DNA from: Thermofilum pendens Hrk 5
Lineage (GTDB): Archaea; Thermoproteota; Thermoprotei; Thermofilales; Thermofilaceae
Assembly (NCBI RefSeq): GCF_000015225.1
Contig: NC_008698.1
Span: forward strand, 150,001-182,000
Length of the DNA stretch: 32,000 nt
Direction: 5' to 3'
A model generated the notes under the pieces. The model saw only the letters and a program-made list of their open reading frames with translations, did not search any database and was not told where the DNA came from. The translations under genes were made by a program, and so were the position numbers. Shown one piece after another: positions 4,503 to 31,480 of the stretch. Position 1 is the first letter of the stretch; each line of letters opens with the position of its first letter.

Positions 4503-4518
4503 GCCTTCTTCACCCAGT

Positions 4519-4546
4519 CAAAAATAAAATAAAAAATAAAAATGTT
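4519..4546 (-). terminator. Long T-rich tract ending the fdh-hyf operon; it probably also carries the TATA box for the 119-aa/mobA unit
   Basis: The minus strand reads CATTTTTATTTTTTATTTTATTTTTG directly after the stop at 4552 and 17-45 nt upstream of the ATG at 4502. Confidence 0.45.
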
Positions 4547-4551
4547 TTAGT

Positions 4552-5985: not shown

Positions 5986-6719
5986 CTTCCTACCACCTCT
6001 TTGAGTTTTAGGCATGAGAGCCTAACTGCCTCGGTTATTCGGGCGTCGTGGTACTTCTCGGAGACCGCTTTCTCGGCTTTTGCGGCGAAGTCGTCTAGGT
6101 CCTTGCTCCCCTTAGAGATCCTTAACAGGTCGCATAAAACTCTGTAGCCGATCCTGTACCCGAGGTGCTTGTAGAGCTCTAGCTTCAAGGCCCTGTAAAG
6201 CTCCCAGCTGTTAATGGCGCCCTCGAGGCTCGGAAGCGCGGGTTTAAAGCTCTCTGCATCAGCCTTCGTTTCCGATCTCTTCACCTTCTGCTCTAGGATA
6301 TCGAGGGCAACAGCCACCCCGTGCAGTATTGCGTGAGGCCTGGGCGGGCAACCGGGAATATACACGTCGACGGGAATCACTTTGTCGACCCCGCCTGCAG
6401 TCCCGTAGGTGTCGTACCATATTCCGCCGCCGCAGGCGCAAGCCCCGCACGCAACAACTACACAGGGCTTGGGCGCAGCTTCGTATGTTGCTTTGAGCAC
6501 GGGTAGGAACTGCCTAGTGACAGGGCCTGTGACCAGTATGACATCCGCCATCCTAGGTGAAAGTACGAGCTTTACACCGAGCCTTTCAACGTCAAAATAG
6601 GGGGTCAGGGCGTCGAACACCTCTATGTCGCAACCGTTGCAGGAGCCCGAGTCGACTCTAAGTAGGTAGACCGACCTCTTCAGGGCGTCGTAAGCCTTCT
6701 GCTTAGCCAACCTACTCAT
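5982..6719 (-). CDS. hyfI: [NiFe] hydrogenase small subunit, HycG/HyfI (NuoB-like)
   Basis: The [4Fe-4S] ligands are present (CNGC, GACACGGG, PGCPP). A C-terminal tail of roughly 95 aa resembles the tail of E. coli HycG as I recall it. The ATG at 6719 is preceded by GGGAGG and overlaps the upstream stop. The ORF-track start at 6746 is probably too long. Confidence 0.9.
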   Translation of the reverse strand: MSRLAKQKAYDALKRSVYLLRVDSGSCNGCDIEVFDALTPYFDVERLGVKLVLSPRMADVILVTGPVTRQFLPVLKATYEAAPKPCVVVACGACACGGGIWYDTYGTAGGVDKVIPVDVYIPGCPPRPHAILHGVAVALDILEQKVKRSETKADAESFKPALPSLEGAINSWELYRALKLELYKHLGYRIGYRVLCDLLRISKGSKDLDDFAAKAEKAVSEKYHDARITEAVRLSCLKLKEVVGR

Positions 6720-7296
6720 GCCTCCCACCCTCTTCCCCAGTAACACTCAGAGGCTTTACACCCGGTCTTGCGGACTTCACTATAGATAGCACGGTTCTCC
6801 TACGCTTACACTCGGGGCACTCCACGCCGTTCTCCAGGAGCTCTAGCACCGAGCGAGGCAGAGTCTTCGCTTCCGCCAGTATCTGAGCGGCCTGCGCAAC
6901 TTCCCTCTCTGTCACAGGGAAGTACTTTCCGCACGTGCTACACCTCGCCAATGGCGTCTCTACGACTACCTCCAAGTCCTCGCGAGTCTTCGAGGCAAGT
7001 TCGTACTCCTTGCTCTGCCTTATCGCTGAAAGCGGGCATGCCTCTTCGCATCTCCCGCAGAAGATACACCTTCCGTAGAATATCTTCCAAGTTCTCAGTC
7101 CTCTCTCAAGGTCATCCACGCAGGTTATAGCGTCCGGTGGGCACACGTTAGCACAAGCTCCGCAACCCATGCATATGCTCGGGTCTATCTCCGGCTTTCC
7201 TCGAAAGTCCTCGGGAGCCTCCTCCGGCTTAAACGGGTACTCAAGCGTTGCTACTCCTTCCCTTAGGGCTATTTTTAGGATCTGCCTTATGCCCAT
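6712..7296 (-). CDS. hyfH: Hydrogenase 2x[4Fe-4S] subunit, HycF/HyfH (NuoI-like)
   Basis: FRGKPE, CMGCGACANVCP and CIFCGRCEEACP are followed by a CSTCGKYF...CPECKRRR ribbon. As I recall it, E. coli HycF has the same layout. Confidence 0.9.
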   Translation of the reverse strand: MGIRQILKIALREGVATLEYPFKPEEAPEDFRGKPEIDPSICMGCGACANVCPPDAITCVDDLERGLRTWKIFYGRCIFCGRCEEACPLSAIRQSKEYELASKTREDLEVVVETPLARCSTCGKYFPVTEREVAQAAQILAEAKTLPRSVLELLENGVECPECKRRRTVLSIVKSARPGVKPLSVTGEEGGRHE

Positions 7297-8990
7297 GGCT
7301 TACCACCTTTACGAGAGAGAGAAACCAAATACTCGTACGGAAAAACGCGGGTCCTCCCACTCTTTACGTCCACAACGATCACTCTCTCCGTACAACTATA
7401 GCAGGGGTCAATGCTCCCAATTATCAACGGGAGATCTGCCAGCGTATAGCCTCGGCACATGTAGGGTATTGCCGGCCAGTTATTGTACGTTGAGGCTCTC
7501 ACCCTCCACCTGTAAACCTTGCTGTGCGGGCCGGTTATGACAAAGTGCACGTCTTCACCTCTCGGAGCTTCAACGTAGCCCAGTCCCCTGGCGTAAGGTC
7601 TGTACTCCTTCACCTCGGCTTGTATAGGTCCTCCCGGCATGTTCTCAAGCACCTGCCTAATGATACTTATGGTTTCGAAAGTTTCCTCGGCTCTTACGCT
7701 GAGTCTCGCGAGGACGTCTCCCTCGCTGTGCACTGGGACCTTAAAGTCCACCTCGCTGTACGCGGCGTAGGGGTGATCCTTCCTCGTGTCCCTCTTTATC
7801 GAAGAGCCGCGGGCAACCGGTCCAACCACGCTGACCTTTCTTGCGACGTCCCTAGGCAGTACTCCAACGTCCTTTGCGCGGCTTACAAGCGTAGACGTGC
7901 TGAGAACAGCGTCTAGGACAGCCTTATACTCCTTTTCCACTTCCTTCAGGATTTCGAGGGCCTTCTTCGCTCTGTCCTCGGTTATGTCCCTTCTCACGCC
8001 CCCGACCACGTTCATACCGTAAGTCTTCCTGCCGCCCGTGAGGAGCTCTGCCATGTACATTACTTTCTCTCTAGCCTTGAAGAAGGCCATGAAGCCCCAG
8101 TCGAAGCCCGCGAGGTGGCATGCTAGGCCTAAGTTCAGCAGGTGGCTGTGCAGCCTCTCCACCTCCAGCATGAGCGTCCTTATGTACAATGCCCTCTCTG
8201 GAACCTCTATGCCTAGCGCCTGCTCGACTGCCTGGCAGTACGCGCACGAATGAGCATACCCGCATATGCCACATATTCTCTCCGCGATGAACGGTACTTG
8301 GTTGTAGGTCAGCCTGCTCTCCGCGAGTTTTTCAATGCCGCGGTGGACGTAGAACATCCTGTAGTCGACGTCGACTACCTTCTCTCCATCAAGGAACACT
8401 CTGAACTGCCCGGGCTCGTCGGCAACGGCGTGTACGGGGCCTATAGGCACTTGCATTATGCCTTCTCCTTCTACGCTCGGTCTAAACTCGCACTTTCTAG
8501 CTACGCTAGGAGGCCTCTCCGTGTACGTGAACTCCTTTCTAAGAGGATGAACACCCTCGGGCCAGTCGTCGGGCAATACCAGTCTGCGCGGATCCGGATG
8601 GTTCTCGGGAACTAGCCCTAAGAGGTCTCTCACCTCCCTCTCGTACCAGGAAGCCGCGGGAATCTTGGGCGTTACTGAGGAGAACTTCGTATCGTGGGGC
8701 GGTATATTCGTTACTACCACAACCCACGGTTTCTTGCCATCTTCGTAACCCTCCTCTATGGAGAAAACGTAGTAGAGTCTATACGCTCCGTGCAGGCTCC
8801 TCTCGTCACTTCCGGCCATGGTAGAGAGGAAGCCTCCCAGCTCGTAGTAAACGTACGAGCAGACTTCTGGGAGCTTCGTCCTCTCGACGTATAGGTATAG
8901 CTGATCGGGATAAGGTTTCTCAACTCCTAGTAACAGCCCTCCGATTTCCTTTCTGATCTTTTCCTCTAGTCTCTCCATCCCATTGTTCAT
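7287..8990 (-). CDS. hyfG: Group 4 [NiFe] hydrogenase large subunit, HycE/HyfG type (NuoC-NuoD fusion)
   Basis: The N-terminal Ni-Fe ligand motif is RICGICGYAHS and the C-terminal motif is DPCYSCTER (7383-7409), followed by a 31-aa tail. The ATG at 8990 forms an ATGA overlap with the upstream stop, giving 567 aa. The 641-aa ORF-track version runs into the upstream gene. Confidence 0.95.
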   Translation of the reverse strand: MNNGMERLEEKIRKEIGGLLLGVEKPYPDQLYLYVERTKLPEVCSYVYYELGGFLSTMAGSDERSLHGAYRLYYVFSIEEGYEDGKKPWVVVVTNIPPHDTKFSSVTPKIPAASWYEREVRDLLGLVPENHPDPRRLVLPDDWPEGVHPLRKEFTYTERPPSVARKCEFRPSVEGEGIMQVPIGPVHAVADEPGQFRVFLDGEKVVDVDYRMFYVHRGIEKLAESRLTYNQVPFIAERICGICGYAHSCAYCQAVEQALGIEVPERALYIRTLMLEVERLHSHLLNLGLACHLAGFDWGFMAFFKAREKVMYMAELLTGGRKTYGMNVVGGVRRDITEDRAKKALEILKEVEKEYKAVLDAVLSTSTLVSRAKDVGVLPRDVARKVSVVGPVARGSSIKRDTRKDHPYAAYSEVDFKVPVHSEGDVLARLSVRAEETFETISIIRQVLENMPGGPIQAEVKEYRPYARGLGYVEAPRGEDVHFVITGPHSKVYRWRVRASTYNNWPAIPYMCRGYTLADLPLIIGSIDPCYSCTERVIVVDVKSGRTRVFPYEYLVSLSRKGGKPWA

Positions 8991-10450
8991 ATTCTCACAC
9001 CCCCTATTAGGTAGAGGGAAACAAACCCGGAAACCACGCATAACAATACCAGTACCAGTAGTCCTGCAAGCATGGCCCGCGGACTCTTCCCTCGAAGCTT
9101 CTGCATAGCCTCCGAGGGCTCCCCCATTACGGCGTGCTGTACTACCCTTAAGAACCAGGCGAAGCACACCACTTCGATCGCTAGAGAGGCAGAGGCAGCT
9201 AAGGGCGCCCATAGTCCCAGAGCCGGGTTAAAGCCCGAAAGCACGATGTATGCCTTGCTGAAGAAGCAACCAAAGGGCGGTAGGCCCATTATGTCGAGTG
9301 CCGCCGCAAGCAGTACTGCTGCTACAAGTGGGTTTGCATCCCACAGCCCCCTAATATCGCTCAGCCTCTTTGTACCTGCGCAGTAGAGCAGTAGACCGCT
9401 CAACGCGAAGAGGGCTCCCTTTGCGTAGGCCTGGTTCACCACGTGCATTAGCATAGCCTTTAGACCTAGTTGCGACCCGGCTAGATAGTAGGATAGCGAC
9501 AGCGATGCTAGCCCCATCTCCACGATGCTCGAGTAGGCGAGTAATCGCTTAAAGTCCATTTGTGCAGGCATGCACAGCACCCCTACTGCTACACTCAGCA
9601 CGGCAAGGATGGCGATCGCCGAGTACCACCATTCCATGTTCGCCTGTAGCGCCAGGCTGATTCTCGTAAGCCCGTAGAGCCCCATCGAAAGCATAACTCC
9701 GCTTAGCAACGCCGAGACATTGCTCGGAGCCGCTGGGTGTGCCTCGGGAAGCCACACGTGGAGAGGTACAAGACCGAGCTTCATGCCGAAGCCGATCAAT
9801 GCCAAAGCGAGTATTGCTGTCTTCACGCCGGGCTCGATCGTGTGAGGATCCACCTTAAGCAGGCTCCACGAACCTGAGGTCAGAACTGTAAGTACAAGCG
9901 ATACTGCTATGCACGCAAAGCCTACGTGCATGAGTATGAAGTAGAGGTAGCCAATCCTTCTCACGTCCGGCGTGTCCTCGTATATGACCAGGAAGTACGA
10001 GCTCGCAGTCATGAGCTCCCAGAAGAACAGGAACCAGAGTACGTTGTCCGTGCAACACGTCATTATCATTGAGAAGATGAAGGCATTGTAGAAAGTGCCG
10101 AAATAGCCTATGCTCCTCTCACCGTAGAACATCTTGAGGTAGCCTACGGAGAATATCGAGATAGCGAAGGTTAGGGTCGCCACAGCGAAGACGAAGGACG
10201 CCGAGAGAGAGTCTATGTATACCGTTAGGGGGGCTTCGGCTACTACCACCCTGTAAGGACCCAGGACCACAGGCTTCCCTGTCTCCATGACTATCGCGCT
10301 TGCACAGGCGACGGCAACGGATGCTATCGCCGAGGAAGCCATCGACACCACGTTGGCAAGCTTTGGCTTTGAGTCAAAGAGTAGCGCAAGGACTGCTGCC
10401 GCTAGGTAGGCGGCTAGGCCTATTACAAACAACTCGACTGGAGAAATCAT
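8987..10450 (-). CDS. hyfD: Antiporter-like membrane subunit, HyfD/HyfB (NuoL) type
   Basis: WELMTASSYFLVIYE and GLVPLHVWLPEAHPAAPSNVSALLSG are characteristic motifs. The 487-aa protein is polytopic and overlaps both neighbouring genes by 4 nt. Confidence 0.85.
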   Translation of the reverse strand: MISPVELFVIGLAAYLAAAVLALLFDSKPKLANVVSMASSAIASVAVACASAIVMETGKPVVLGPYRVVVAEAPLTVYIDSLSASFVFAVATLTFAISIFSVGYLKMFYGERSIGYFGTFYNAFIFSMIMTCCTDNVLWFLFFWELMTASSYFLVIYEDTPDVRRIGYLYFILMHVGFACIAVSLVLTVLTSGSWSLLKVDPHTIEPGVKTAILALALIGFGMKLGLVPLHVWLPEAHPAAPSNVSALLSGVMLSMGLYGLTRISLALQANMEWWYSAIAILAVLSVAVGVLCMPAQMDFKRLLAYSSIVEMGLASLSLSYYLAGSQLGLKAMLMHVVNQAYAKGALFALSGLLLYCAGTKRLSDIRGLWDANPLVAAVLLAAALDIMGLPPFGCFFSKAYIVLSGFNPALGLWAPLAASASLAIEVVCFAWFLRVVQHAVMGEPSEAMQKLRGKSPRAMLAGLLVLVLLCVVSGFVSLYLIGGVRI

Positions 10451-11922
10451 GGCACACCACCCCCTACAATACTCCTACCGGCATTCTCAAGGCATGAACG
10501 TAAAGGCTCGGGTATATATACGCCCAGGAGCAACGAGAGCAGTAGCAGAATGGTTATAGGAGCTTTCAGTATGTGTGGATACTTCTCTGTGCTCGATGCT
10601 GGCTCCCCGAAGACCATGTTTGTGCAACTAACGAGCAGCGCGGCGAAAGCCACCACTATCGCTGCGAGGAAGAGCACCAGGGCGAAAGGATTCCCGGACT
10701 TCACTCCAGCCATTATCGCCAGGAGCTCCGACTGGAATGTTCCGAAGGGAGGACCCCCTATGATCGCGTATGCGCCGGCTAGCACTAGGGCGCCGAGCGC
10801 AGGGTAGGACCTCATCATGCCTCTTATCCCCTCTATTTTCCGCGTGCCGTAAGACAGCGTTACGAGGCCCGAGGAAAGGAAGAGGGCAGACTTCACGAGC
10901 GCATGGTTTACTACGTGGAAAACAGCGGCTAGAGCGCCCAAGTAGCCGCCAAACCCCAGTGCGCAGGCAATGATACCCATGTGCTCTACGCTCGAAAGTG
11001 CGAAAAGCCTGTTAACGTCGGTCACAGCGAGCATGTGCAACGAGGAGATGAAAAGTGAGGCTATACCTACTACTAGCAGTACAGTTTGAGCAAAAGCTCC
11101 CACCCCGGCCAGCACTGAGACACTGTAGAACCTCACCAGAGTGTATATCGCGCAACCCTCCAGTATGCTGGCCAGAAGTGCTGACACGTACGGCGGGGCT
11201 TCGGAGTAGGTATCCGGGAGCCAAGTATGGAAGGGAGCTAGCCCGGCTTTCGTGCCGAAGCCTACAAGCGCAAGCGTAAAGGCTATTTTTACCATAGTCG
11301 AGTGTGCTTCAAGCATCTTTGCATGGTCGACTAGGCTTGTCCAGAGGAGCGGGGCAGGGATGCCGGCTAAGTAGGCTGTGTAGTAGAGTGTGACCACACC
11401 GTAAAGCCCGAAGGCTATACCCGTCGAGCACAGAATAATGTACTTCCACGAAGCCTCGATGGCCTCCGCCGTGCGGTAAGTAGCGACAAGGTGTGCCGTC
11501 GCTATCGTCGTGGCCTCCAATGCAACCCACATTATCGCGATATTGTTCGTTGTCACTACTAGAATCATTGTGAAGATAAAGGCGTTGAGCAGGACGTAGA
11601 AGAGGACTACTTTCTCGCGTGCAACGACTCCGCGTTCAACCTCGTAGGCTAGGTATTTCGGCGAGTACAGCGATACCATTAGTGACACGAATGAGATAAC
11701 GACCAGCATTAGCGAGGTCAGCGAGTCTACAATGAACTCGTCGCCCAGGAGCAGGAACTTTCTGCCCGTCGACGTTTCAACCATGAGTAGACATGAAACC
11801 GCGGAGAGGAGGAGCGTCGAGACCACTGTGAGAATCTCCCCTACTCTGGCGTTTCTAAGTAGAGCAGTAAACGCTGAAGCGCAGAGAGGAGCCGCAAACA
11901 ATACGAGGAGGTATGCCTCCAT
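10447..11922 (-). CDS. hyfF: Antiporter-like membrane subunit, HyfF (NuoM/N) type
   Basis: WVALEATTIATAHLV and GLAPFHTWLPDTYSEAP are motifs typical of hydrogenase-4 component F. The protein is 491 aa. Confidence 0.85.
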   Translation of the reverse strand: MEAYLLVLFAAPLCASAFTALLRNARVGEILTVVSTLLLSAVSCLLMVETSTGRKFLLLGDEFIVDSLTSLMLVVISFVSLMVSLYSPKYLAYEVERGVVAREKVVLFYVLLNAFIFTMILVVTTNNIAIMWVALEATTIATAHLVATYRTAEAIEASWKYIILCSTGIAFGLYGVVTLYYTAYLAGIPAPLLWTSLVDHAKMLEAHSTMVKIAFTLALVGFGTKAGLAPFHTWLPDTYSEAPPYVSALLASILEGCAIYTLVRFYSVSVLAGVGAFAQTVLLVVGIASLFISSLHMLAVTDVNRLFALSSVEHMGIIACALGFGGYLGALAAVFHVVNHALVKSALFLSSGLVTLSYGTRKIEGIRGMMRSYPALGALVLAGAYAIIGGPPFGTFQSELLAIMAGVKSGNPFALVLFLAAIVVAFAALLVSCTNMVFGEPASSTEKYPHILKAPITILLLLSLLLGVYIPEPLRSCLENAGRSIVGGGVP

Positions 11923-11934
11923 AATCCCACCACC

Positions 11935-12573
11935 TCAGTACCTTAGTAACGAAAGCCTCCCGGTATCGAGTGTTCCAACAACTTTCTTCATCTCCTCTGC
12001 AAGCAGGCAACATACGAGCACAAGTAGAACCGCGTCCGTCAATACGCCGACTTCGACTGTTTCTGGCAGACCTGGGGCCATAACTGCCAGCGTAAGGTGC
12101 GAGCCGTTCTCGAAGTGGCATATCCCTAGGATTTGCTTTAACGCGTCCCTACGTGTAACCATGAGGTGTAAGCCTATCAGGAACAGCGCAACGGAGACCG
12201 AGAGGGGTACGCTCTCCCAGCCGGAGACTATTCTCGTGCCAATGGCGAATCCTATGGCTATTAGCGCGCCCAGGAGTATATGGCTCGCCCACCCGCCGAG
12301 GTACGGCTCCTCCTCGACAACGGCATCGACACGCTTCGTGGTTCTAAGTATGAAGTAGGGAACTAGGACGGCCTTTGTTAGTATGGCGGTGAGGCCCCAC
12401 AGTGCAAAGTACCACTCAACTGTTGAAAGCATGAAAAATATCGAGGCCAGCAAAAGCGTCTGAACGCAGTAGGCATAGGTCGCCCTCCTTAGATTCCGCT
12501 CCTCGTTAATGTAGCTCGCTGTTAGCACCATTAACGCCGCACAAGCTCCTATACTCTTCTCCAAACCGAGCAT
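11935..12573 (-). CDS. hyfE: Hydrogenase-4 membrane subunit E-like (NuoK-related)
   Basis: A 212-aa multi-TM protein of the size of HyfE (about 216 aa), in the matching operon position. The assignment rests mainly on size, hydrophobicity and context. Confidence 0.65.
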   Translation of the reverse strand: MLGLEKSIGACAALMVLTASYINEERNLRRATYAYCVQTLLLASIFFMLSTVEWYFALWGLTAILTKAVLVPYFILRTTKRVDAVVEEEPYLGGWASHILLGALIAIGFAIGTRIVSGWESVPLSVSVALFLIGLHLMVTRRDALKQILGICHFENGSHLTLAVMAPGLPETVEVGVLTDAVLLVLVCCLLAEEMKKVVGTLDTGRLSLLRY

Positions 12574-12576
12574 TTT

Positions 12577-13515
12577 TCACCACCCCATAAGGTAGAATAT
12601 AGTTGCGCATACCACGAGAACGAAGACGAGTGATAAATTCTTGTGAAGTTCCACAACCTTATACCTGGCGTTCCCAGCGATCACCAACGCGGCTATAGTA
12701 ACAAGTGCCAAGAGCTTGATCAGGTAGCTTGCTACACCGACTAAGATTCCGAGAGGTTCAAGTGTCAATGCTACGCCGTAAGGCAGGAAAATATCAACGA
12801 AGAGTGTGAAGAGCACTGCCCTCTTCACCATCATGGATAGTTGCATAAGAGCGAGCTGCCTCCCCGAGTACTCTTGAAGCAAGCCCTCCTGTATTTCCTG
12901 TTCAGCCTCGGCTACGTCGAACGGAAGTACTCCCGCCTCTGCCAGCATGCACACGAAGAAGGCCAAGGCCGCAACGATGTAGGAAGGCCTCGCGATAAAC
13001 GTCTCCCAGCGCAGGCACGTGTGACTCACTACGGCATAAAGGCTTGAGGAGCCACCCTCCAGAGCCGGTAGGAGCGCCGCGAAGAGCATGGGTACCTCTA
13101 TGACTACGGCTGCAGCATTCTCGCGCCATGCTCCGGCTGCGGCCAGCGGCGAGCCTGTATCAAGGCTGGCTATTGAGAGTACGAATCTTGCGAGAGCGAG
13201 AGAGTAGATTAGGAGGAAGATGTCGGCTAGAGGGATGCCCATGTTTACAAACACTGGGATGCTCATGGCAATGACTACTGTTATCGCTAGGTAGAGCAGC
13301 GGTGTAGCCATGTAGATCCAGGAGCTAACCTCGGGGACTGAGAGCTTGTCCTTTGACCACAACTTTAGCAGGTCTCTGTAGGGCTGTATCACGGGTGGAC
13401 CTTTACGTAACTGTAGCCTGGCGATTATCTTTCTTTGTATGCCATAGGCTAGTGGCGCCAGGAGTACTAGGCAGACCCCCTGGACGACACCCACCAAAAT
13501 TTGCAGGGGTATCAT
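12577..13515 (-). CDS. hyfC: HyfC/HycD (NuoH-like) membrane subunit
   Basis: The 312-aa polytopic protein has an N-terminal RKIIARLQLRKGP motif and a conserved EAEQEIxEG loop typical of NuoH/HycD. It overlaps the upstream gene by 4 nt. Confidence 0.85.
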   Translation of the reverse strand: MIPLQILVGVVQGVCLVLLAPLAYGIQRKIIARLQLRKGPPVIQPYRDLLKLWSKDKLSVPEVSSWIYMATPLLYLAITVVIAMSIPVFVNMGIPLADIFLLIYSLALARFVLSIASLDTGSPLAAAGAWRENAAAVVIEVPMLFAALLPALEGGSSSLYAVVSHTCLRWETFIARPSYIVAALAFFVCMLAEAGVLPFDVAEAEQEIQEGLLQEYSGRQLALMQLSMMVKRAVLFTLFVDIFLPYGVALTLEPLGILVGVASYLIKLLALVTIAALVIAGNARYKVVELHKNLSLVFVLVVCATIFYLMGW

Positions 13516-15725
13516 GGTAAAACCACCCCCAGAACCAGGAGTAAAACTACCATCACGAGTATGTAGAACATGTAAATATGCAGAGCTCCGGCCTGAACCT
13601 TTCTAACGAGCAGCCCGAGCTTGAGAGCGAGCTTGGCGAGTGGGGCGTAGGTAACCTTCTCCTTGTAGGCAGGTCTCGCTTCTAGGATCCCTGCAATCGG
13701 TTTTGCGAAGGGAGCATAGAGAGAGTTCTCGAGGAGGGTGGCTAGGCGAGCCAGCGTACCCTGGGTTGTGGTGGGCGGTCCCTCCACCTTTACGTAGGCA
13801 TACGCCTCGATCTTCGGGCGCATCTCAACTTCGTAGCTGAGCTTTCGCGTATATATCGGTGGGACGCTGTATTCTCTATGCTCCTTAACGGTCACCCCGT
13901 AGAGGCGCGCAAAGAGCCCTCTCACCTGGGAGGCATACGCGGTCGCCGTAGGCTTCATGGCTTCTGGCTCATACTCCACACCGCTTACCCATGGCGGCGT
14001 CCTGGTGATTTTCAGCCTTCTGAGCCCGAGCGCCAGTCCAGCGGCAGCTACCAAGATTACGAGAGCCGCGGCTAAGCCGGGCAAGGATACCTCGCCACGT
14101 AACAAGTTGGACTCTAAGACTAGGCTCAGCGGGCTTGGTGCGGCAAGCGGTGCCGGCGCTCCTGTGATCTGCCTCGATGCTTTATCCACGAAGACGGCTA
14201 CGTAGGGCATAGCTACGCCCAGCACTATGCATGCCGCCGCCGGGATAGCCATTCCGATTTTCATTGTGAGAGACTCTCCTCCCTTGGGCTTCACACGCCC
14301 TAACGGGCCCAGGAATGTTACACCATAGACCTTGGTGAAACAGAGCACAGCGAGCGCGCCGGCAAGGCCCAGCATGAGGGCTGAGAAGAGAGCTGCGAGG
14401 GAGACCCAGGGAGCCTTGCCTGCGGCTTCCTTCACGACTGCGAGGAGCGACTGATAGGTTAACCACTCGCTGGCAAAACCGTTGAGAGGCGGCACTCCTG
14501 CGATTGCCATCGCGGCTATTAGGAAAGTCACAGAGGTCCAGGGAAGATATTTCGACAACCCTCCTAGTAGCTCGAAGTTTCTAGTCCTACAGCTCTTAAG
14601 CACGGAGCCCGATCCTAGGAAGAGCAGGGACTTGAACACCGCGTGGTTCAGTAGGTGGTACAGCGCGGCTGTGAGCGCTAATGCTGCAACGTCCTTAAGA
14701 CCCTCGGAATAGAGTATTAGCGAAGCTCCTACGCCCAGCAATATTATCCCTATGTTCTCAATACTGTGGTATGCCAGTAACCTTTTAAGGTCGTGCTGTA
14801 CGACCGCGAACTGTACTCCAATTATCGTCGAGAAAGCAGCTATGATCATCACGGCGCACCCCCACAAGCCTCCCTCGACCCCGGATGGTTTGAGGAAATC
14901 GAAGACAACCCTGATTAAGCCGTAAACCGCTACTTTTAGCATGACTCCGCTTAGCAACGCCGAGACGTTGCTCGGAGCTGCCGGGTGCGCCTGGGGGAGC
15001 CACGCGTGCAACGGCACTATGCCAGCTTTCGAGCCGAAGCCTACCAGGGCAAGCAGGAATATCAGCGATGCTATGCCTGGAGGCACGCCTCCCTCCCTAA
15101 AGGCATCGAAGGAAAGCGAGCCCTTGATGAAGTACAGCAGCGCGTACGATAAGAGAATGCAGGCCCCTCCCGCGTGTGCAATAATAAAGTAAGTCTTGGC
15201 TGCATCCCTACTTTCCTCGCTACGGTGCTCATAGCCCACCAGCATGTACGATGAAAGAGTCATTAACTCCCAGGAGAGGTAGAAGGAGAGAGCGTCGTTA
15301 GCTGTTACCACCAGAACCATTGAGAGCACGAAGAGAGCGTAGAAAAACGTTAAGTACGAAATGCTGTACTCTCCTGCGTACATCTCCGAGTACCCGATGG
15401 AGAATATAGACGAGTAGAGTGCAACGAACGATATCACTAAAAGCAGGAATGCGGAGAGCTTGTCTACGTAGAGCGCGAAGAAGCCATGCGCGCCGAACTG
15501 ATCCTGGAGCCCCGGTACCCTGATCCCTTCCACAATCACCGGGGCTCCGGGGCTTAAAAGCGCGTCCAAAGAGTACAGCATCAGTAGAAGTGACGCTAAG
15601 GCTGTTAGCGCATAAGTGAGACGTATGTTCTCCTTAGGCTTCGACCTTAGTATAAGCGAGAGAACGATTGACACTACGTACAGGGCAATGGAACCTAAAA
15701 AAAGAAAAATATTTCCCTGCAACAT
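13512..15725 (-). CDS. hyfB: HyfB/HycC (NuoL-like) antiporter-like subunit with a long C-terminal region
   Basis: WELMTLSSYMLVGYE and GIVPLHAWLPQAHPAAPSNVSALLSG are characteristic motifs. The ATG at 15725 lies 13 nt after the upstream stop. The TTG at 15746 used by the ORF track is less likely. Confidence 0.9.
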   Translation of the reverse strand: MLQGNIFLFLGSIALYVVSIVLSLILRSKPKENIRLTYALTALASLLLMLYSLDALLSPGAPVIVEGIRVPGLQDQFGAHGFFALYVDKLSAFLLLVISFVALYSSIFSIGYSEMYAGEYSISYLTFFYALFVLSMVLVVTANDALSFYLSWELMTLSSYMLVGYEHRSEESRDAAKTYFIIAHAGGACILLSYALLYFIKGSLSFDAFREGGVPPGIASLIFLLALVGFGSKAGIVPLHAWLPQAHPAAPSNVSALLSGVMLKVAVYGLIRVVFDFLKPSGVEGGLWGCAVMIIAAFSTIIGVQFAVVQHDLKRLLAYHSIENIGIILLGVGASLILYSEGLKDVAALALTAALYHLLNHAVFKSLLFLGSGSVLKSCRTRNFELLGGLSKYLPWTSVTFLIAAMAIAGVPPLNGFASEWLTYQSLLAVVKEAAGKAPWVSLAALFSALMLGLAGALAVLCFTKVYGVTFLGPLGRVKPKGGESLTMKIGMAIPAAACIVLGVAMPYVAVFVDKASRQITGAPAPLAAPSPLSLVLESNLLRGEVSLPGLAAALVILVAAAGLALGLRRLKITRTPPWVSGVEYEPEAMKPTATAYASQVRGLFARLYGVTVKEHREYSVPPIYTRKLSYEVEMRPKIEAYAYVKVEGPPTTTQGTLARLATLLENSLYAPFAKPIAGILEARPAYKEKVTYAPLAKLALKLGLLVRKVQAGALHIYMFYILVMVVLLLVLGVVLP

Positions 15726-15738
15726 ACCACTACCCTGA

Positions 15739-16281
15739 TTATACAATTATTCCTTTAATCTCGGATTCCCTTCCGCTTCCAGCTATCTTCAAAGCTGTGG
15801 CGGCGCGTTTCGCGCGCTGGTACTCTTCTACGCTTTCGTACACGAGTGCGTCGGCCGGGCATGTCGCTACGCACGCAGGCTCCAATCCGCGTGCCCTCCG
15901 CTCGGCACACATGTCGCACTTCACCATTATCTTCAGCTCCTTGTCGACCGTGGGTATGCCGAATGGGCATGCGAGAACGCAGAGCCTACACCCAATGCAC
16001 CTAAGGGAGTCTACGATTACAGCTCCTTCGGCGTCCCTCTTGATTGCCTTCACCGGGCAGACGGCCATGCAGGGAGCCTCCTCGCAGTGTCTGCAGTTCA
16101 GCGGTACGCACATCCTGGCCTCCTCTATTAGGTATACGTCGATAAAGGACTTGCCACCGTGCTCTATCTCGCAGGCCACCTCGCAGGCTCTACAACCGAT
16201 GCATCGCTCAGGGTATATGCACACTAGCTTCTCGATAGCGGGATCCTTCTCCTCAACTACCGGGTTTCTTCCAGCCGCCAC
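15739..16281 (-). CDS. HycB/HyfA-like 4x[4Fe-4S] electron-transfer subunit
   Basis: Four cluster motifs are present: CIGCRACEVACE, CRHCEEAPCMAVCP, CIGCRLCVLACP and CDMC...CVATCP. The 180-aa ORF sits between the FDH and hydrogenase genes. Confidence 0.9.
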   Translation of the reverse strand: MAAGRNPVVEEKDPAIEKLVCIYPERCIGCRACEVACEIEHGGKSFIDVYLIEEARMCVPLNCRHCEEAPCMAVCPVKAIKRDAEGAVIVDSLRCIGCRLCVLACPFGIPTVDKELKIMVKCDMCAERRARGLEPACVATCPADALVYESVEEYQRAKRAATALKIAGSGRESEIKGIIV

Positions 16282-16287
16282 ACCCCA

Positions 16288-18345
16288 TCACCTCTCCTCC
16301 ACAGGTACAACTTTACAGGCACAAACTTTCGTCTCCGGGATTTTAGCCACGGGATCCAAGGCGTCGTTCGTGAGTACGTTTGCCCCGAAGTGCCACGGCA
16401 CAGCTACTACATCCTTCGCTATTAGGTTCGTGACTTTAACTCTGCACGTGTACTCGCCGCGCCGCGTGATTATCTTTATAAGTCCCCCGTCCCTCACGCC
16501 GTACTTCCTGGCGGTCTCCGGGTGGATCTCCGCCACGGGCTCTGGCCACCTTTTCCTTAAGTGCACGCTCCTGTGGGTCATCGTCGCCGTGTGGTACTGC
16601 CCGACGTACCTGAACGTTGTGAGAATGAGCGGGTACTGCTCGTCGGGCTTCTCTGCCGGGTCAGTGTACTCGGGTGTCTGCGTATTGAACTTGCCGCTTG
16701 GCGTGGCGAACTTCTCGACGTGTAGCCTCGCAGTGCCCGGGTGGTCGGGCGAGGGGCACGGCCAGAGAATGCCGCCGATACTGTTCTTCAGCCTCTCGGC
16801 CGTTATCCCGGCGTACTGAGGGACAACCTTGTTTATCTCGGCCGTGATGTCCTCCACGCGCGTATACGGGAAGAAACGCTCCAGCCCTAGGGCCTTAGCA
16901 ATCTCGGTGATTATAACCCAGTCCGGCTTAGCTTCGCCTGGAGGCTCTACGGCCTTAAAGCTCCACTGAACCCTTCTCTCGGTGTTCGTGAAGGAGCCTT
17001 CCTTCTCGGCCCAGCACGCCGACGGCAACACGATGTCGGCCAGTTGTGCCGTCTCCGTGAGGAAGATGTCCTGGACTACCAGGAAGTCTAAGTGCTCTAA
17101 GGCCTTCCTAACGTGGTTCGCGTTGGCGTCGCTGATCAGGGGGTTCTCCCCCATTATGTACATAGCCTTTAGCTTTCCTTGCTCCGCTGCATACGACATC
17201 TCGATCACCGTGTAGCCAGGCTCAGCTGGGAGATCGTCCAGCCCCCACGCCGACGCGACCTTCTTTCTTTTCTCCGCATCAATGACCCTAGCATAGCCTG
17301 GTAGAAAGACGGGAAGAGCGCCCATGTCGCAGGCTCCCTGTACGTTGTTCTGACCCCTAACCGGGGCGACCGCGCAGCCCTCCTTGCCGTAGTACCCGCA
17401 GATCGCGGCAAGAGTGGCTAGTCCTATGACATTGTTAGTACCTTTAGTGTGCTGCGTGATACCCATGCACCAGCATATCGACGCCTTACCCGCCTTGGCG
17501 AATTCCCTGGCAACCTGCCTTATGAGGTGCGCCGGAGCCCCGCTCACGGACTCGGCGTACTCCGGCGTGTACTTCGAGACGAAGCGCGCGAGATCGTCGA
17601 ATCTCTCAACCCTTTCCTTCACGAACTTCTCGTCATAGAGCTTTTCCTGTATGATCACGTTTATCATGGCGTAGATAACCGCCAGGTCCGTGCCGGGCTT
17701 GATAGGTATGAAGTAGTCTGCGTGCCAGGCTGTCCGGGTGCAACGGGTATCCACGACCGCTATTTTCGCTCCCTTCTCCTTCGCCTTCAGTATGTACTGA
17801 CCCATGAGTATGGGGTGCGTCTCGGCGGGGTTGTAGCCCCAGATCAGGATGAAGTTAGAGGCTGCTATGTCCTCGAAGGGCGCAGTCATCGCGCCAGCCC
17901 CTACAGTGGCCGAGAGGCCTGCAAGCGAGGGGGCATGACACAGTCTCGCGCAGTGGTCGATGTTGTTCGTTCCGAATACCCTTGCCAGCTTCTGCATCGC
18001 GTAGTTCTCTTCATTGAAGACCCTAGCCGAGGCGAGGAAACCCACCGCTTGGGGACCGTACTCCTTTCTCACGTTGTTAAGGTTCTCTGCAACCTCCCTT
18101 ATGGCGTCGCTCCAGGAGATTTCCTTGAACTCTCCGCTCTCAGTCCGCTTGAGGGGCTTCGTTAAGCGGTCGGGTGCGCGTAGGACGTCGAGCGCAGACC
18201 GCCCCTTGGGGCATAGCTTCCCCCTGTTGACCGGGTGTTCGGGCATATGCTCTATGCCTACGGGGTTGCCATAGTCATCTACGGAGATGTAGAAGCCGCA
18301 TCCAACCCCGCAGTAAGGGCATATTACTTTGACCTTTCGGCCCAT
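16288..18345 (-). CDS. fdhF: Formate dehydrogenase catalytic subunit (FdhH-like bis-MGD enzyme), Cys type
   Basis: The N-terminal segment CPYCGVGCG is a [4Fe-4S] motif. GTNNIDHCARLCHAPS aligns with E. coli FdhH GTNNVDCCARVUHGPS, with a TGT Cys codon at 17938-17940 in place of Sec. The protein is 685 aa. Confidence 0.93.
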   Translation of the reverse strand: MGRKVKVICPYCGVGCGFYISVDDYGNPVGIEHMPEHPVNRGKLCPKGRSALDVLRAPDRLTKPLKRTESGEFKEISWSDAIREVAENLNNVRKEYGPQAVGFLASARVFNEENYAMQKLARVFGTNNIDHCARLCHAPSLAGLSATVGAGAMTAPFEDIAASNFILIWGYNPAETHPILMGQYILKAKEKGAKIAVVDTRCTRTAWHADYFIPIKPGTDLAVIYAMINVIIQEKLYDEKFVKERVERFDDLARFVSKYTPEYAESVSGAPAHLIRQVAREFAKAGKASICWCMGITQHTKGTNNVIGLATLAAICGYYGKEGCAVAPVRGQNNVQGACDMGALPVFLPGYARVIDAEKRKKVASAWGLDDLPAEPGYTVIEMSYAAEQGKLKAMYIMGENPLISDANANHVRKALEHLDFLVVQDIFLTETAQLADIVLPSACWAEKEGSFTNTERRVQWSFKAVEPPGEAKPDWVIITEIAKALGLERFFPYTRVEDITAEINKVVPQYAGITAERLKNSIGGILWPCPSPDHPGTARLHVEKFATPSGKFNTQTPEYTDPAEKPDEQYPLILTTFRYVGQYHTATMTHRSVHLRKRWPEPVAEIHPETARKYGVRDGGLIKIITRRGEYTCRVKVTNLIAKDVVAVPWHFGANVLTNDALDPVAKIPETKVCACKVVPVEER

Positions 18346-18512
18346 GTAACAACCCCTTTTACGGGTTTAATCGTTCAACGCCTGTCGAAATAAGCTTCGT
18401 TTCAACACGACGTTAAAACGGCGAGGGACACTGCTAAACCTCTTGCCACTTCCGTTTAAGCAAAGTAGGTAGTCGGAGGAAACTTTAGACATTAAATCCA
18501 GTAAATAGTGCT
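18346..18512. promoter_or_regulatory. Divergent fdh-hyf / focA control region containing a repeated CGTT(T)CAAC motif
   Basis: This is a 167-nt non-coding spacer. On the minus strand, ATTAAAC lies about 25 nt upstream of the fdh ATG. An imperfect inverted repeat sits at 18398-18420, and a third half-site at 18372-18379. Confidence 0.45.
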
Positions 18513-19661
18513 ATGGCAACCGAAGAGAAATTCACCCCATACGCTGGGGTTGACGAAACCGTTGACGCCGCGGCAAGCGCAGCGGTCGTAAAGGCCTTTC
18601 AGCCCCCGGGCCGCCTATTCCTGATGGGCATAATGGCGGGTATATTCATTGGGATAGGCTTCTGGCTGGCAGTCACTGTTTCCTCTGCGTTCTGGACAAC
18701 GAAGGTTACGGGCTTCGACGCCGCCACTCATAAGCTTGTCACTGAGCCTTTCAACGTAGCGTGGCCCCTCAACCCCTCAGCAATGATGAAGTTCCTGCTG
18801 GGCGCCGTGTTCCCTGTAGGCTTAATCGCTGTGTGCATCGGCGGGGCGGAGCTCTGGACCGGGTGCGCGAACGTAATACCGCTGGGCTACATGCAGAAGA
18901 AGCTCAAGCTGAAAGCGCTAATCTACAACTGGGTTACCGCGTACGGAGGCAACTGGGTGGGTAGCGTATTCCTAGCGTTCCTCGCCACTTACGGCTCGAC
19001 GCTACTCCTGGCCTCACCGTTCCGCGACGAACTGATCTCCGTAGTTTGGGCGAAAGTTAACCTCTCGCCCTGGGAGGCTTTCTGGCGCGGCGTGGGATGC
19101 AACTTCCTAGTAAACCTTGCGATATGGCTCTGGCTGAGGTCTAAAAAGGGAGATTTCATGGGACAAGCCTTCCTGATATGGTTCCCGATATTCACCTTCG
19201 TAACCATAGGCTTCGAGCACAGCATTGCCAACATGTTCCTAATACCTGCCGCTATATTCGCCTCCCCGCTCGCCCTCAAGCAGTACATAATAACATACTA
19301 TGACTTCTTCTTCAACAACCTACTCCCGGTGACTTACGGTAACCTTGTAGGAGGCTTTGTCTTCATAGCGCTGGTTTACTGGTACGTAGGAATGGTTAAG
19401 GGCAGTAAGTACGGCGAAGCTACGCCCACCGACGCGCTCAAGTACGCCGCCGAGATACTACTCTTGGCGGGCATCGTGCACCATGTACTCGAAGTCGCTG
19501 TCCCCGGAGCTATCGCCGTAGCCGTAGAGAAAGCTTTAGGGCTTAGTGCAGGCATAAACCTGACGAACGCGGGTATGGCTCTCATACCGGCAGTGATCAC
19601 AGGTATTTACTACGCTCTACTACCCTTTATAGTATACAAGGCTCTGAAGCCATTAAAGTAA
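18513..19661 (+). CDS. focA: Formate/nitrite transporter family channel (FocA-like) with a C-terminal extension
   Basis: The FNT signatures GGAELWTG and GFEHSIANMF are present. At 382 aa it exceeds the roughly 285 aa typical of FocA. It is divergent from the formate dehydrogenase gene. Confidence 0.9.
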   Translation: MATEEKFTPYAGVDETVDAAASAAVVKAFQPPGRLFLMGIMAGIFIGIGFWLAVTVSSAFWTTKVTGFDAATHKLVTEPFNVAWPLNPSAMMKFLLGAVFPVGLIAVCIGGAELWTGCANVIPLGYMQKKLKLKALIYNWVTAYGGNWVGSVFLAFLATYGSTLLLASPFRDELISVVWAKVNLSPWEAFWRGVGCNFLVNLAIWLWLRSKKGDFMGQAFLIWFPIFTFVTIGFEHSIANMFLIPAAIFASPLALKQYIITYYDFFFNNLLPVTYGNLVGGFVFIALVYWYVGMVKGSKYGEATPTDALKYAAEILLLAGIVHHVLEVAVPGAIAVAVEKALGLSAGINLTNAGMALIPAVITGIYYALLPFIVYKALKPLK

Positions 19662-19670
19662 AACTCTACT

Positions 19671-19687
19671 CTTTTTTTTATTCTTTA
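19671..19687 (+). terminator. Oligo-T terminator after focA
   Basis: CTTTTTTTTATTCTTT begins 10 nt after the focA TAA. Confidence 0.45.
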
Positions 19688-21271
19688 TGCTTTTGCGAGT
19701 AGTTGCGGTAAACCATCGGCTCTGAAGACTCCTTTTTCTGCAAGCTCCAGTACGCGCTTTACCAGGATCTGCCTGCCACCTGCTATTATAAAGTCCGAGG
19801 AATCTATATAGTAGCCCTTTACTCCGTTTACCGGGGTTTCTTCAAGAGAAGCAACGATTTCAGGAATAGGTAGCGGGTTTCTCAGAGGAGTTACGCATAG
19901 CTTTTCAGTGCTCGCGAAGAGGGCTCCAGTTAGAACCTGCGTTAGAACCCCTTTTCCAAAATGATCTTTTAGCACTATGAAACCCTCCGGGAAGGAGCAT
20001 AGCGCCGCATCCGTAACCATGACGTCTGAGTCTTTGCTGAGCACTAGTATTACCTCAAGCGGTTTAAACGATGCCTCTTCAAGCGCTACGCGAACATTAA
20101 CATGTGTGTCACTAGAGGAGCCCTGAGCTAGAAGTATTACAGTTCCTTTCTTGGAATGTTCGCAGACACTGTTTGAAAGCCTGCGCTTTATATCTATGTA
20201 TCTTCTCGCGAGAGCTTTTCCAAAGTTGTTTACGCTGGTTTTGCCGTGTTCCGCTCCGCCGCGCCTACACTCCACAAGCCTTACTCCTATCATTGATTCT
20301 TTCCTTGTAAGCTTTGCGTAGATGTTCTGTGGGCGTGCTCCTAGGAGCCTCGAAACCGCACTGAGGGACTTTGTATAGCAAAGCAAGGCCAGAGCCAGCA
20401 ACTCCTCCTCGCCTAAGGGTACACCGTTTACACTTAGCACTATGCGCGGCTCCACGGTTACTCCCAGCTCCCGGAGGCTGTAAGCCTCCGCATAGTCGCC
20501 CTTCAGCAGGGTTCTAAGCACTAAGAAAAATTTCTCGCTACTTTCTACTGCCTCACGGAGGTTAAAGCCCTCCCCGCTGAGCGAGGAAGATAGAATATTC
20601 CCTGGCCTCACGACCAGCGTTGAGAAGGGCTCCGGGGATAAGGACGCAACTCTAACGATATAGCCGTTATAGTTGTAGCCCTTCACGAGAAGCACGCCCT
20701 CTCGGAGCGAAAATACAGCCTTACCCAGATCCACAGGGCAAGAACTGGTGTCAGAGCCCTCTTCGCATGGCAGAAGGACATAGAAAGGTATTCCTAGCCG
20801 GTACGCTTTATCAACCATGTACAAGGAGTTCTTCAAACATTCTTCGTCATCGCATACGGTACCGAGTAAAACATTAAAGCCCAGGGAAAGCGCCTCTATT
20901 ATCTTACCTTCAACTTCCTGGAAGCGTGCCGGGTGATCCACAAGGCAAAGTATCTCTATTTTCTCCAGCCCATTCTCGAAGGCTAGCTTTGTAAACTTTC
21001 CCAGGGAATTCCAGGGAACAAACACCCTGAGTTTTTTTCCGAAGCTATTAAACAGAGCCTTTAAAAGCTCGATACCCCAGCCCTTCTCAGTTACGTCGGG
21101 GCATAGCACTACAGCGCTTTCTACCTCGACACCCGTTTCTCTGAGCATAGCCAGAAATGCCCTTATAACCTCTAGGCTTAGCTCACTGCTATCCCACCGG
21201 GCCCACATGCAGTTAGAGCATTTACCGCGACAAGATCCTGGCAAGAGTACCGCTAGAGCTGTAACCTTCAT
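19685..21271 (-). CDS. Multidomain putative regulator: N-terminal CX3CX2C Fe-S/radical-SAM-like module, central ModE-type winged HTH, uncharacterised C-terminal alpha/beta domain
   Basis: CRGKCSNC occupies aa 14-21 (nt 21209-21232). Residues about 276-365 (SLSAVSRLLGARPQNIYAKLTRKESMIGVRLVECRRGGAEHGKTSVNNFGKALARRY) are, from memory, collinear with the N-terminal DNA-binding domain of E. coli ModE. The C-terminal 150 aa begins TVILLAQGSSSD. Confidence 0.6.
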   Translation of the reverse strand: MKVTALAVLLPGSCRGKCSNCMWARWDSSELSLEVIRAFLAMLRETGVEVESAVVLCPDVTEKGWGIELLKALFNSFGKKLRVFVPWNSLGKFTKLAFENGLEKIEILCLVDHPARFQEVEGKIIEALSLGFNVLLGTVCDDEECLKNSLYMVDKAYRLGIPFYVLLPCEEGSDTSSCPVDLGKAVFSLREGVLLVKGYNYNGYIVRVASLSPEPFSTLVVRPGNILSSSLSGEGFNLREAVESSEKFFLVLRTLLKGDYAEAYSLRELGVTVEPRIVLSVNGVPLGEEELLALALLCYTKSLSAVSRLLGARPQNIYAKLTRKESMIGVRLVECRRGGAEHGKTSVNNFGKALARRYIDIKRRLSNSVCEHSKKGTVILLAQGSSSDTHVNVRVALEEASFKPLEVILVLSKDSDVMVTDAALCSFPEGFIVLKDHFGKGVLTQVLTGALFASTEKLCVTPLRNPLPIPEIVASLEETPVNGVKGYYIDSSDFIIAGGRQILVKRVLELAEKGVFRADGLPQLLAKA

Positions 21272-21432
21272 GGTCTCTACACACCGCTACACTTGAATGC
21301 AAACCTCCAACTACCTGTCTTATCAAGTAAATATAAAAATTTCGATACATATTTTTTAGACAAAACAATGTCAGTATTTCACATGCGAAATTAATTTAAC
21401 AGCAGCTACACATAACGAGATTTAGGGTTACC

Positions 21433-24925: not shown

Positions 24926-25077
24926 CCTGTTCGTAGCGGCGCTTAACAATGTTTTTAAAAACTTCCGTTATTACGTTGTATTATGTCTAAATAGGGGATT
25001 TATAACCTGGAGTATTGTCAAAAACCTCCTTTAATATTGCTAAAATAAAGACTTGCTTTTCGTACTCTCATTGCGCG

Positions 25078-31032: not shown

Positions 31033-31144
31033 TCCAACGCACCCGGACCACTCATAGTGCGAGTAGTATTAATTTTTCGCGATATGCGCCCCCCACTCTC
31101 GTGTGCTTAAAGTATTAATACTCGCGCTCTTCAAACGCAGTGTA

Positions 31145-31480
31145 ATGACGACCGATAAAATCATGGAGGGGGGCAGCGCGACTCCTCAGAAGGCCTTCGA
31201 GAAGATGGTGAACAAAGCAGCCTGGCTTCTGAGCGAAGGTAGGGTTGTTAAGATCAGCCCCTACCTGTACTACGTAATAGGGAAAAACAGCAAGCACCTC
31301 GTGAGGTACGAGAATGGAAGGTTCATCTGCACGTGTAAGGGATTCGAGGAGAAGGGTGTCTGCTCCCACGTTATCGCCGTAGCCACCCTAAGCGAGCTGA
31401 AAGATGTTAACGCCTTCCTCGATGAGAGAGTCAAGGAGAGAGTTAGGAGAGAGCTTCGAGAGCTCTATGGGAAGAAGTGA
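31145..31480 (+). CDS. Small SWIM-type zinc finger protein
   Basis: CTCKGFEEKGVCSHV matches CxCx(n)CxH. The ATG at 31145 lies about 30 nt downstream of AAAGTATTAATA, so it is preferred to the GTG at 31103 used by the ORF track. Confidence 0.7.
   Translation: MTTDKIMEGGSATPQKAFEKMVNKAAWLLSEGRVVKISPYLYYVIGKNSKHLVRYENGRFICTCKGFEEKGVCSHVIAVATLSELKDVNAFLDERVKERVRRELRELYGKK

Follow-up and report, generated by a model that had tools for sequence, protein, structure and literature searches.

A candidate Fe-S-based regulator with a ModE-type DNA-binding domain beside the formate hydrogenlyase-type operon of Thermofilum pendens

Results

Gene, reading frame and start codon

A 32,000-nucleotide stretch of Thermofilum pendens Hrk 5 (contig NC_008698.1, positions 150,001 to 182,000 of the forward strand; hereafter the window, in whose numbering coordinates are given) carries a gene for a 528-residue protein (hereafter the target) next to a focA-type formate/nitrite transporter gene and upstream of a formate hydrogenlyase (FHL)-type operon (Table 1). 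The protein is composed of an N-terminal radical-SAM-like (SAM, S-adenosylmethionine) domain with a putative [4Fe-4S] site, a central winged helix-turn-helix (HTH) of the ModE/LysR class and an orphan C-terminal domain, and by analogy with its relatives it probably regulates formate hydrogenlyase by means of an Fe-S centre.

The open reading frame (ORF) had been recognized in a preliminary description of the window and is real: its translation contains no stop and is identical to the 528-aa protein ABL77602.1 of T. pendens Hrk 5, which bears the GenBank product name 'transcriptional regulator, Fis family'. This product name was not supported, since no HTH_8 match was obtained with Pfam at E <=10. 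The gene is present in two T. pendens assemblies. By codon scoring, all three segments of the gene were coding-like in frame 0 only, with a GC content of 48-51% (window, 55%) and a codon score below those of the neighbouring genes; the low GC and weak codon adaptation could reflect either horizontal acquisition or low expression. The RefSeq entry WP_052884987.1 (487 aa) starts at M42 (nt 21148), and the part encoded by 21148-21271 (minus strand), which comprises beta-1 and the CX3CX2C triad, is thereby dropped. The long start is favoured here because residues 1-41 are homologous to the N-terminus of the protein family described below (L6, C14, C18 and C21 are kept in the alignment) and because the best codon score was obtained in frame 0. 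The homologue P0002 is shortened likewise when compared with P0020 and with a longer ORF in locus L003; since its triad is visible only in the longer form P0020, starts in this family appear to be often called too far downstream, and the RefSeq start at M42 deserves reconsideration, since the Cys triad is removed by it.

Table 1. Coordinates of the target gene, its domains and other features (positions in the window unless a locus is named).
Feature	Position	Strand	Remarks
Target gene	19685-21271	minus	528 aa + stop; stop-free frame, translation
Radical-SAM-like (partial TIM barrel) domain, residues 1 to ~232	20576-21271	minus	AlphaFold2, Foldseek, profiles
CX3CX2C motif CRGKCSNC (C14/C18/C21), residues 14-21	21209-21232	minus	Putative [4Fe-4S] site; read from sequence
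C57 of Leu-Cys-Pro motif, at GGE position	21101-21103	minus	Candidate fourth cluster ligand; alignment
Target-specific Cys-rich stretch, C140-X3-C144 ... C169-X8-C178	20738-20854	minus	Not family-conserved; low-confidence model region
ModE/LysR-class winged HTH (HTH_1), residues 276-368	20168-20446	minus	Profiles, PDB, Foldseek, pLDDT 80-90
Orphan C-terminal domain, residues 369-528 (~160 aa)	19688-20167	minus	Predicted alternating beta/alpha
Divergent promoter region target/psiE	21272-21432
Divergent promoter region fdhA/focA	18346-18512		Candidate site of action of the target
focA-type formate/nitrite transporter	18513-19661	plus	Pfam Form_Nir_trans, E 1.4e-69
Formate hydrogenlyase-type operon	3520-18345	minus	FDH-alpha through to mobA
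FDH-alpha	16288-18345	minus	First gene of FHL-type operon
4Fe-4S subunit	15739-16281	minus	FHL-type operon
mobA	3520-4146	minus	FHL-type operon
119-aa ORF, no Pfam match	4143-4502	minus	Between last hydrogenase/Mrp subunit gene and mobA, at operon 3' end
Tungsten-type aldehyde:ferredoxin oxidoreductase (AOR)	517-2373	minus
161-aa 2x[4Fe-4S] ferredoxin-like ORF	15-500	plus	Adjoins AOR, convergent
125-aa ORF, SWIM zinc-finger match	31103-31480	plus	E 9e-5
V4R partner genes of relatives	L002:83-706, L003:5334-5912, L007:4552-5112, L009:618-1190, others

Family of relatives in the Thermoproteota

When 1.84 billion representative proteins were scanned exhaustively with HMMER, 17 proteins were retrieved besides the target. 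Eleven full-length representatives (335-381 aa, E 1.7e-10 to 6.5e-4) consist of an N-terminal Fe-S domain and a C-terminal HTH, and the remaining proteins combine the HTH with a PBP_like domain or are stand-alone ModE-like HTH proteins. Query residues 5-369 were aligned in one stretch with P0002, P0003, P0006 and P0008 and in two stretches with P0007 (phmmer E for these five proteins, 1.7e-10 to 5.3e-6), and the target scored 334 bits against the family hidden Markov model (HMM), of which it is itself part. Judged from these alignments, the target is a member of the family, whose other proteins measure 335-385 aa, by homology that extends over the HTH and the non-HTH domain alike. The protein had been proposed to be an undescribed chimera; for its first two domains this view was given up, since the combination of Fe-S domain and HTH recurs in this family, which is syntenic with V4R and carbon monoxide dehydrogenase (CODH) genes.

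Homologues with names are deposited as 'LysR family transcriptional regulator' and come from Desulfurococcales, Acidilobales, Pyrodictium and Zestosphaera. A scan of genome contigs with the family pattern yielded three loci, all in metagenome-assembled genomes of Desulfurococcales and none in Thermococcus, a scan of metagenomes yielded seven loci, and no match to peptides of the target was found in the genome contigs. With a V4R HMM, a V4R gene was detected directly upstream of the family member in 10 distinct loci. Wherever enough sequence is available, except in L015, the family gene is adjoined by cooF-cooS(-cooC, CooT, Mrp/hydrogenase); in the Zestosphaera locus L012 the CODH genes are present and V4R is absent. 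In L015 a V4R/CorR-like pair (L015:23-2899) is located at the contig edge, 3' of an Mrp-type (Proton_antipo_M) gene. Next to the pair on this 8.3-kb contig comes a ZnuABC-like transporter encoded on the other strand, and no CODH is visible there. Against the NCBIfam model of MsvR the V4R partners gave E 3.7e-13, which points to thiol- or metal-based redox sensing in the two-protein systems of the family, and they share a Cys-rich C-terminus with the pattern YECxSCSG...C.FEAG...RE..CWG.G...C.F.

P0011 (335 aa, L023:7001-8008, plus strand) is a distant relative with a radical-SAM-like domain and a ModE-like HTH. It keeps the GGE motif, shows a triad reduced to T-x3-C-x2-C and a weak MoaA motif match, and is without V4R. 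Its gene is divergent from an operon (L023:526-6801, minus strand) for a molybdopterin oxidoreductase with twin-arginine translocation (TAT) signal, Fer4_11, NrfD, TorD-like and rhodanese proteins, and P0011 may stand for another lineage of these regulators, one not associated with CODH.

N-terminal radical-SAM-like domain and its cysteines

The structure of the target was modelled with AlphaFold2 using a 13-sequence alignment (A1). Residues 31-150 were modelled as beta/alpha repeats with a predicted local distance difference test score (pLDDT) of ~70-90, and residues 153-215 with low confidence. In a Foldseek search of the PDB with this model, the top match was MoaA (1tv7; E 1.7e-6, template modelling score normalized to the target 0.60), followed by SkfB, BlsE, AbmM and SuiB and, lower, by viperin and SpeY, all of which are radical SAM enzymes. 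A profile built from the first 170 residues gave weak matches only against the PDB, eight of the 13 being radical SAM proteins (among them PylB, SuiB, YydG, SpeY and anSME). With Pfam Radical_SAM (PF04055) the homologues scored 16-31 bits, and the target was unreported even at E <=10. Taken together, the predicted fold and the sequence motif agree that the N-terminal module is a radical-SAM-like fold with a cluster loop, as had been proposed from the motif CRGKCSNC, which was found at its described place.

The Cys triad is kept in all of the 10 closest homologues, in one of them with CX2CX3C spacing, and is therefore conserved as the earlier proposal demands; a subgroup of four members (P0004, P0005, P0009 and P0010) is without the triad and also without the Cys of a second motif, Leu-Cys-Pro (LCP). 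C57 and P58 of this motif are invariant in alignment A5, and the family sequence 'LCPdP' was placed by HMMER exactly on 'LGGEP' of SuiB, so that GGE is replaced by LCP. The LCP Cys was found in every triad-bearing sequence and was missing from every triad-less one. This joint retention or loss suggests a four-Cys cluster site, and we infer that C14/C18/C21 and C57 hold a [4Fe-4S] cluster. Because GGE is replaced by LCP, SAM chemistry in the target appears doubtful.

Two further Cys pairs of the N-terminal region (CDDEEC and one with CX8C spacing) had been put forward as holders of a second cluster as in MoaA. The pairs are present, but they are specific to the target: in the homologues the corresponding stretch showed only a partial 'CPVD' in P0015, and the weak match of Fer4_23 to the stretch in the target (E 0.012-0.03) was under the cut-off. 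A different motif, C..CRxLxxxPxGxxxKCP...C, which may be twitch-like by analogy, occurs in every member of the family except the target, and the idea of a MoaA-like second cluster was not borne out.

Winged helix-turn-helix

The central region of the target matched the NCBIfam model ModE_repress (TIGR00637) at residues 291-369 with E 2.9e-4, under the curated cut-off, and Pfam HTH_1 weakly (E 0.16). In the PDB, the putative ModE 2ijl matched residues 283-370 (E 0.075, under the cut-off) over a stretch that spans RRGG...G...FG..L..RY. When the family profile including the target was used, 2ijl was obtained with E 5.5e-10 and E. coli ModE with 1.8e-5, with many LysR DNA-binding domains ranking next, and for the homologues ModE_repress was the best NCBIfam model in every case (2e-16 to 4e-8). 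The HTH was modelled with a pLDDT of 80-90, and 1b9m and 2ijl were returned for it by Foldseek. All invariant HTH residues of the family (L294, S302, E325, L332, G338, G339 and G343) are kept in the target. On these sequence matches, weak for the target alone and strong for the family, the HTH is of the ModE/LysR class, and the ModE-type winged HTH of the preliminary description is thus upheld by TIGR00637, 2ijl and the family profile alike.

The HTH is central in the target, not N-terminal as in ModE or LysR-type regulators. The absence of Mop domains was also confirmed, as no Mop/TOBE match was found with Pfam or NCBIfam at E <=10, either on the whole protein or on the C-terminal segment. 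No LysR_substrate/PBP domain was detected in the target with Pfam, and the architecture of a LysR-type regulator is therefore not present.

Orphan C-terminal domain

The C-terminal domain had no homologue in the HMMER scan, and when isolated it gave no sequence match in Pfam, NCBIfam or the PDB (the last searched with phmmer). Its codon usage is coding-like in frame, and its pLDDT was <50 whether or not the alignment was supplied to AlphaFold2. Segment-wise profile and structure analysis thus bore out the HTH and the radical-SAM-like N-terminus and left the C-terminus unmatched.

A faint likeness of the C-terminus to the nucleotide-binding loop of MobA/MocA had been suspected earlier. By hhalign against a small MobA profile, segment residues 40-113 were placed on MobA 44-120, with TPLRNPLP over APADTPFL, at a probability of 1.3%; the score was equalled by 7 of 200 shuffled sequences, and with an unrelated control profile by 6 of 100. 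By BLASTP against the MobA of the window, E 0.11 was obtained for a non-collinear stretch. The LAGGxxxRMG loop and DxP motifs of MobA are replaced in the target by LAQGSSSD and RNP, NTP_transf_3 was not matched with Pfam or NCBIfam, and the resemblance is accordingly regarded as noise. As a fused CorQ/V4R domain the C-terminus scored at shuffle level in hhalign, and as a PBP_like domain its score was equalled or exceeded by 53 of 100 shuffles; comparison with the family profiles was likewise at shuffle level. Since the MobA, V4R and PBP_like comparisons were all empty, the C-terminal domain is treated as an unassigned alpha/beta domain.

Genomic neighbourhood and promoter regions

The neighbours named in the preliminary description (focA, the formate dehydrogenase (FDH)/hydrogenase operon, mobA and AOR) were all found as described. 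The target gene lies upstream of and co-directional with the FDH-hydrogenase operon, focA being inserted between them; focA and the target gene are convergent, with 23 nt between their stop codons, and psiE is divergent from the target gene on the side opposite focA. Besides the subunits listed in Table 1, the operon holds Mrp/Hyf-like membrane subunits and the large and small subunits of a NiFe hydrogenase. No Ni-CODH (cooF-cooS-cooC) cluster lies beside the target gene, and there is no Prismane-family ORF among the annotated ORFs of the window. The AOR gene, with mobA nearby, places several pterin enzymes together in the window.

In the target/psiE promoter region, an imperfect palindrome (21316-21367) encloses a TATA-like sequence, TTTTTATAT, at ~21328-21338 (minus strand). 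The inverted repeats of the promoter regions are AT-rich and overlap the TATA-like box. Two 8-mers common to the two promoter regions were considered as an operator and rejected, since each of them recurs outside these regions in the window. TTTAGACA occurs three times in the window, in intergenic positions throughout (18484-18491 in fdhA/focA, 21355-21362 in target/psiE, and 24984-24991 upstream of a fructose-bisphosphate (FBP) aldolase/phosphatase gene), and AGTAAATA likewise three times (18500-18507 and 21326-21333 in the two promoter regions, and 19604-19611 inside focA). Both resemble general AT-rich elements of promoters more than a specific operator. The sharing of k-mers with the regions upstream of cooF in the homologues was equal to the expectation from shuffled sequences.

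Discussion

Comparison with known systems

The CO-responsive pair CorQR of Thermococcus onnurineus NA1 is reportedly the subject of Kim et al. 2015, Appl Environ Microbiol 81:1708, a paper cited by PMC4791640 and PMC6557876, and we know of no resolved mechanism by which it senses its signal. To our knowledge, the regulation of archaeal formate hydrogenlyase is essentially undescribed. The hyc (FHL) operon of E. coli has ModE as a secondary activator.

The layout of the relatives, with a V4R protein, a protein in which HTH_1 is the only Pfam domain above threshold, cooF-cooS-cooC and an Mrp/hydrogenase module, is shared with CorQR. CorQR of T. onnurineus is described as a V4R protein and a protein with a LysR-type DNA-binding domain, which head the CODH-Mch cluster TON_1016-1031 and act as a positive regulator (PMC4791640, PMC6557876); the names CorQ and CorR are swapped in PMC6557876. 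With the CorQR-type relatives the target has in common the N-terminal Fe-S domain, the HTH and a position upstream of an oxidoreductase-hydrogenase operon. It differs from CorQR in having no V4R (CorQ) partner and in having FDH and focA, not CODH, as neighbours, and from the CorR-like relatives in its extra tail of ~160 aa, in an HTH that is central and not C-terminal, and in the loss of the CRxL...KCP motif. The V4R partners of the relatives resemble MsvR, a V4R redox regulator of methanogens, whereas the target has V4R neither fused nor adjacent.

ModE (1b9m/1o7l, 2ijl) and the target have the same winged-HTH subtype, including the wing segment RRGG-x3-G-x7-G-x2-L-x2-RY; unlike ModE, the target has no di-Mop/TOBE part and no N-terminal HTH, and shows no sign of oxyanion sensing. 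In the HTH_1 + PBP_like regulators (TunR/ModE-like; P0012-P0014), a ModE-like HTH of the same kind directly precedes a C-terminal effector domain, but these proteins are without the N-terminal Fe-S domain, and the tail of the target shows no PBP_like similarity. With MoaA and the SPASM-twitch enzymes (MoaA 1tv7, SkfB 6efn, SuiB 5v1t, SpeY 7wzv) the partial TIM barrel and the CX3CX2C loop are common to the target, while the twitch-like C-terminal Cys motif is found in the relatives and not in the target. From radical SAM enzymes in general the target is set apart by LCP for GGE, the missing PF04055 match and the fused DNA-binding domain, and its N-terminal domain probably serves as a sensor and not as a catalyst.

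Proposed function

With moderate confidence, the target is regarded here as a one-component archaeal transcription factor, a divergent and partner-less CorR-like offshoot in which a degenerate radical-SAM-derived Fe-S sensor is joined to a ModE/LysR-type winged HTH. Control of formate metabolism and sensing of the redox or metal state are plausible by analogy. In this proposal, a [4Fe-4S] cluster on C14/C18/C21 and C57 would sense the redox state or a small ligand and would not serve as a SAM-cleaving catalyst; the ModE-like HTH would dimerise and bind the fdhA/focA promoter region, the promoter region of the target gene itself, or both; and the orphan C-terminal domain would supply the signal input or the partner role that is held by the V4R protein in the relatives. 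Because CorQR positively regulates the CODH-hydrogenase cluster, the target may by analogy turn on the FHL genes when formate or reducing conditions make FHL useful.

Several observations weigh against this proposal. The identity of the target to any relative is 21-28%, and the target is a singleton, as no orthologue outside T. pendens was found either in a word-indexed protein search, which returned the protein itself only, or in the HMMER scan. The second Cys motif of the family is missing, and no V4R gene was found with the V4R HMM among the ORFs of the 32-kb window. Owing to the low identity, the lost CRxL...KCP motif and the lack of a V4R neighbour, the signalling logic of the target may differ from that of its relatives or may have decayed. 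The gene is outside the FHL operon, so that adjacency is the sole link to formate metabolism, and no operator motif beyond chance is shared by 18346-18512 and 21272-21432. The label 'CorR-like' itself is an analogy from synteny and domain description, CorR having been compared by description only.

Alternative explanations

The target could instead be a decaying or neofunctionalised relic, from a CorR-type gene that lost its CODH and V4R neighbours, drifted and gained its tail by fusion or read-through; it would then have no specific part in formate metabolism, and its adjacency to the formate genes would be coincidental. The singleton status and low identity, the lost Cys motif and absent V4R gene, the reduced GC content and codon score, the ORFan nature of the C-terminal domain and the arrangement of the gene, convergent with focA and with its own promoter, all fit such a history. 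However, the 528-codon frame is intact with its three segments coding in frame 0 only, none of the invariant HTH residues, the triad cysteines or the LCP Cys has been lost, the gene is conserved in the two T. pendens assemblies, and its upstream, co-directional placement relative to an oxidoreductase-hydrogenase operon mirrors the usual layout of the family. A relic is considered unlikely.

A ModE-like molybdate/tungstate or molybdenum cofactor (Moco) regulator, with a degenerate MobA/MocA nucleotide- or pterin-binding fold as its tail, would let the expression of the W/Mo enzymes track the supply of metal or cofactor. The HTH is nearer to ModE than to LysR models, FDH, AOR and mobA are in the vicinity, the role of E. 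coli ModE at hyc offers a precedent, and residues 40-113 of the tail are collinear with MobA in hhalign. Against this, the Mop/TOBE domain is absent, the tail matches neither NTP_transf_3 nor any other family, the hhalign score is reached by shuffled sequences and by the unrelated profile at similar rates, BLASTP against the MobA of the window yields nothing, and what the closest relatives control, or at any rate adjoin, is Ni-CODH and not a molybdoenzyme; we consider this explanation quite improbable.

The least probable explanation is a bifunctional enzyme-regulator with a SAM-dependent N-terminus (MoaA-like, or a maturase for the W/Mo-pterin FDH or the hydrogenase) and an HTH that couples its activity to transcription as in BirA- and PutA-type enzyme-repressors. 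In its favour are the intact CX3CX2C, MoaA as the best structural match, the FDH, AOR and mobA genes nearby and the distant P0011, with its GGE, MoaA-like motif match and molybdoenzyme operon. Against it are the LCP in place of GGE in the target and all close relatives, the Pfam Radical_SAM model that went undetected in the target, the auxiliary-cluster motif that is missing there, and the triad-less subgroup, whose members still have the HTH, a V4R partner and a CODH neighbourhood, a pattern that suits a sensor scaffold better than an enzyme.

Implications

Should a degenerate radical SAM Fe-S domain prove to be part of CorR-type regulators, the conserved Cys at the usual place of SAM binding would be a concrete candidate site for signal perception. 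A bolder form of the proposal is that the radical-SAM-derived domain is a new Fe-S small-molecule sensor, in which the LCP Cys caps the unique iron instead of SAM, CO (in the relatives) or formate or the redox state (in T. pendens) displaces or modulates this ligand and thereby switches the HTH, and the C-terminal domain replaces V4R. This form is rather unlikely; if true, T. pendens would possess a self-contained archaeal FHL regulator without counterpart among the FhlA-, CooA- and RcoM-type sensors. The T. pendens protein suggests that the scaffold was re-used for an FDH instead of a CODH hydrogenase module, without V4R and with a new domain, and P0011 may be a sign that metalloenzyme operons are controlled by radical-SAM-derived regulators more widely. 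The radical-SAM-derived sensor scaffold would be tied to the CO and formate hydrogenogenic clusters of archaea.

Other observations in the window

No RNA family was found by an Rfam scan of the window. In the FHL-type operon, the hydrogenase large subunit is encoded by a 641-aa fused NuoC/NuoD-like ORF (7287-9212, minus strand), which overlaps an upstream 487-aa Mrp-type ORF (8987-10450, minus strand) by 226 nt, and for the large subunit the listed start probably lies too far upstream.

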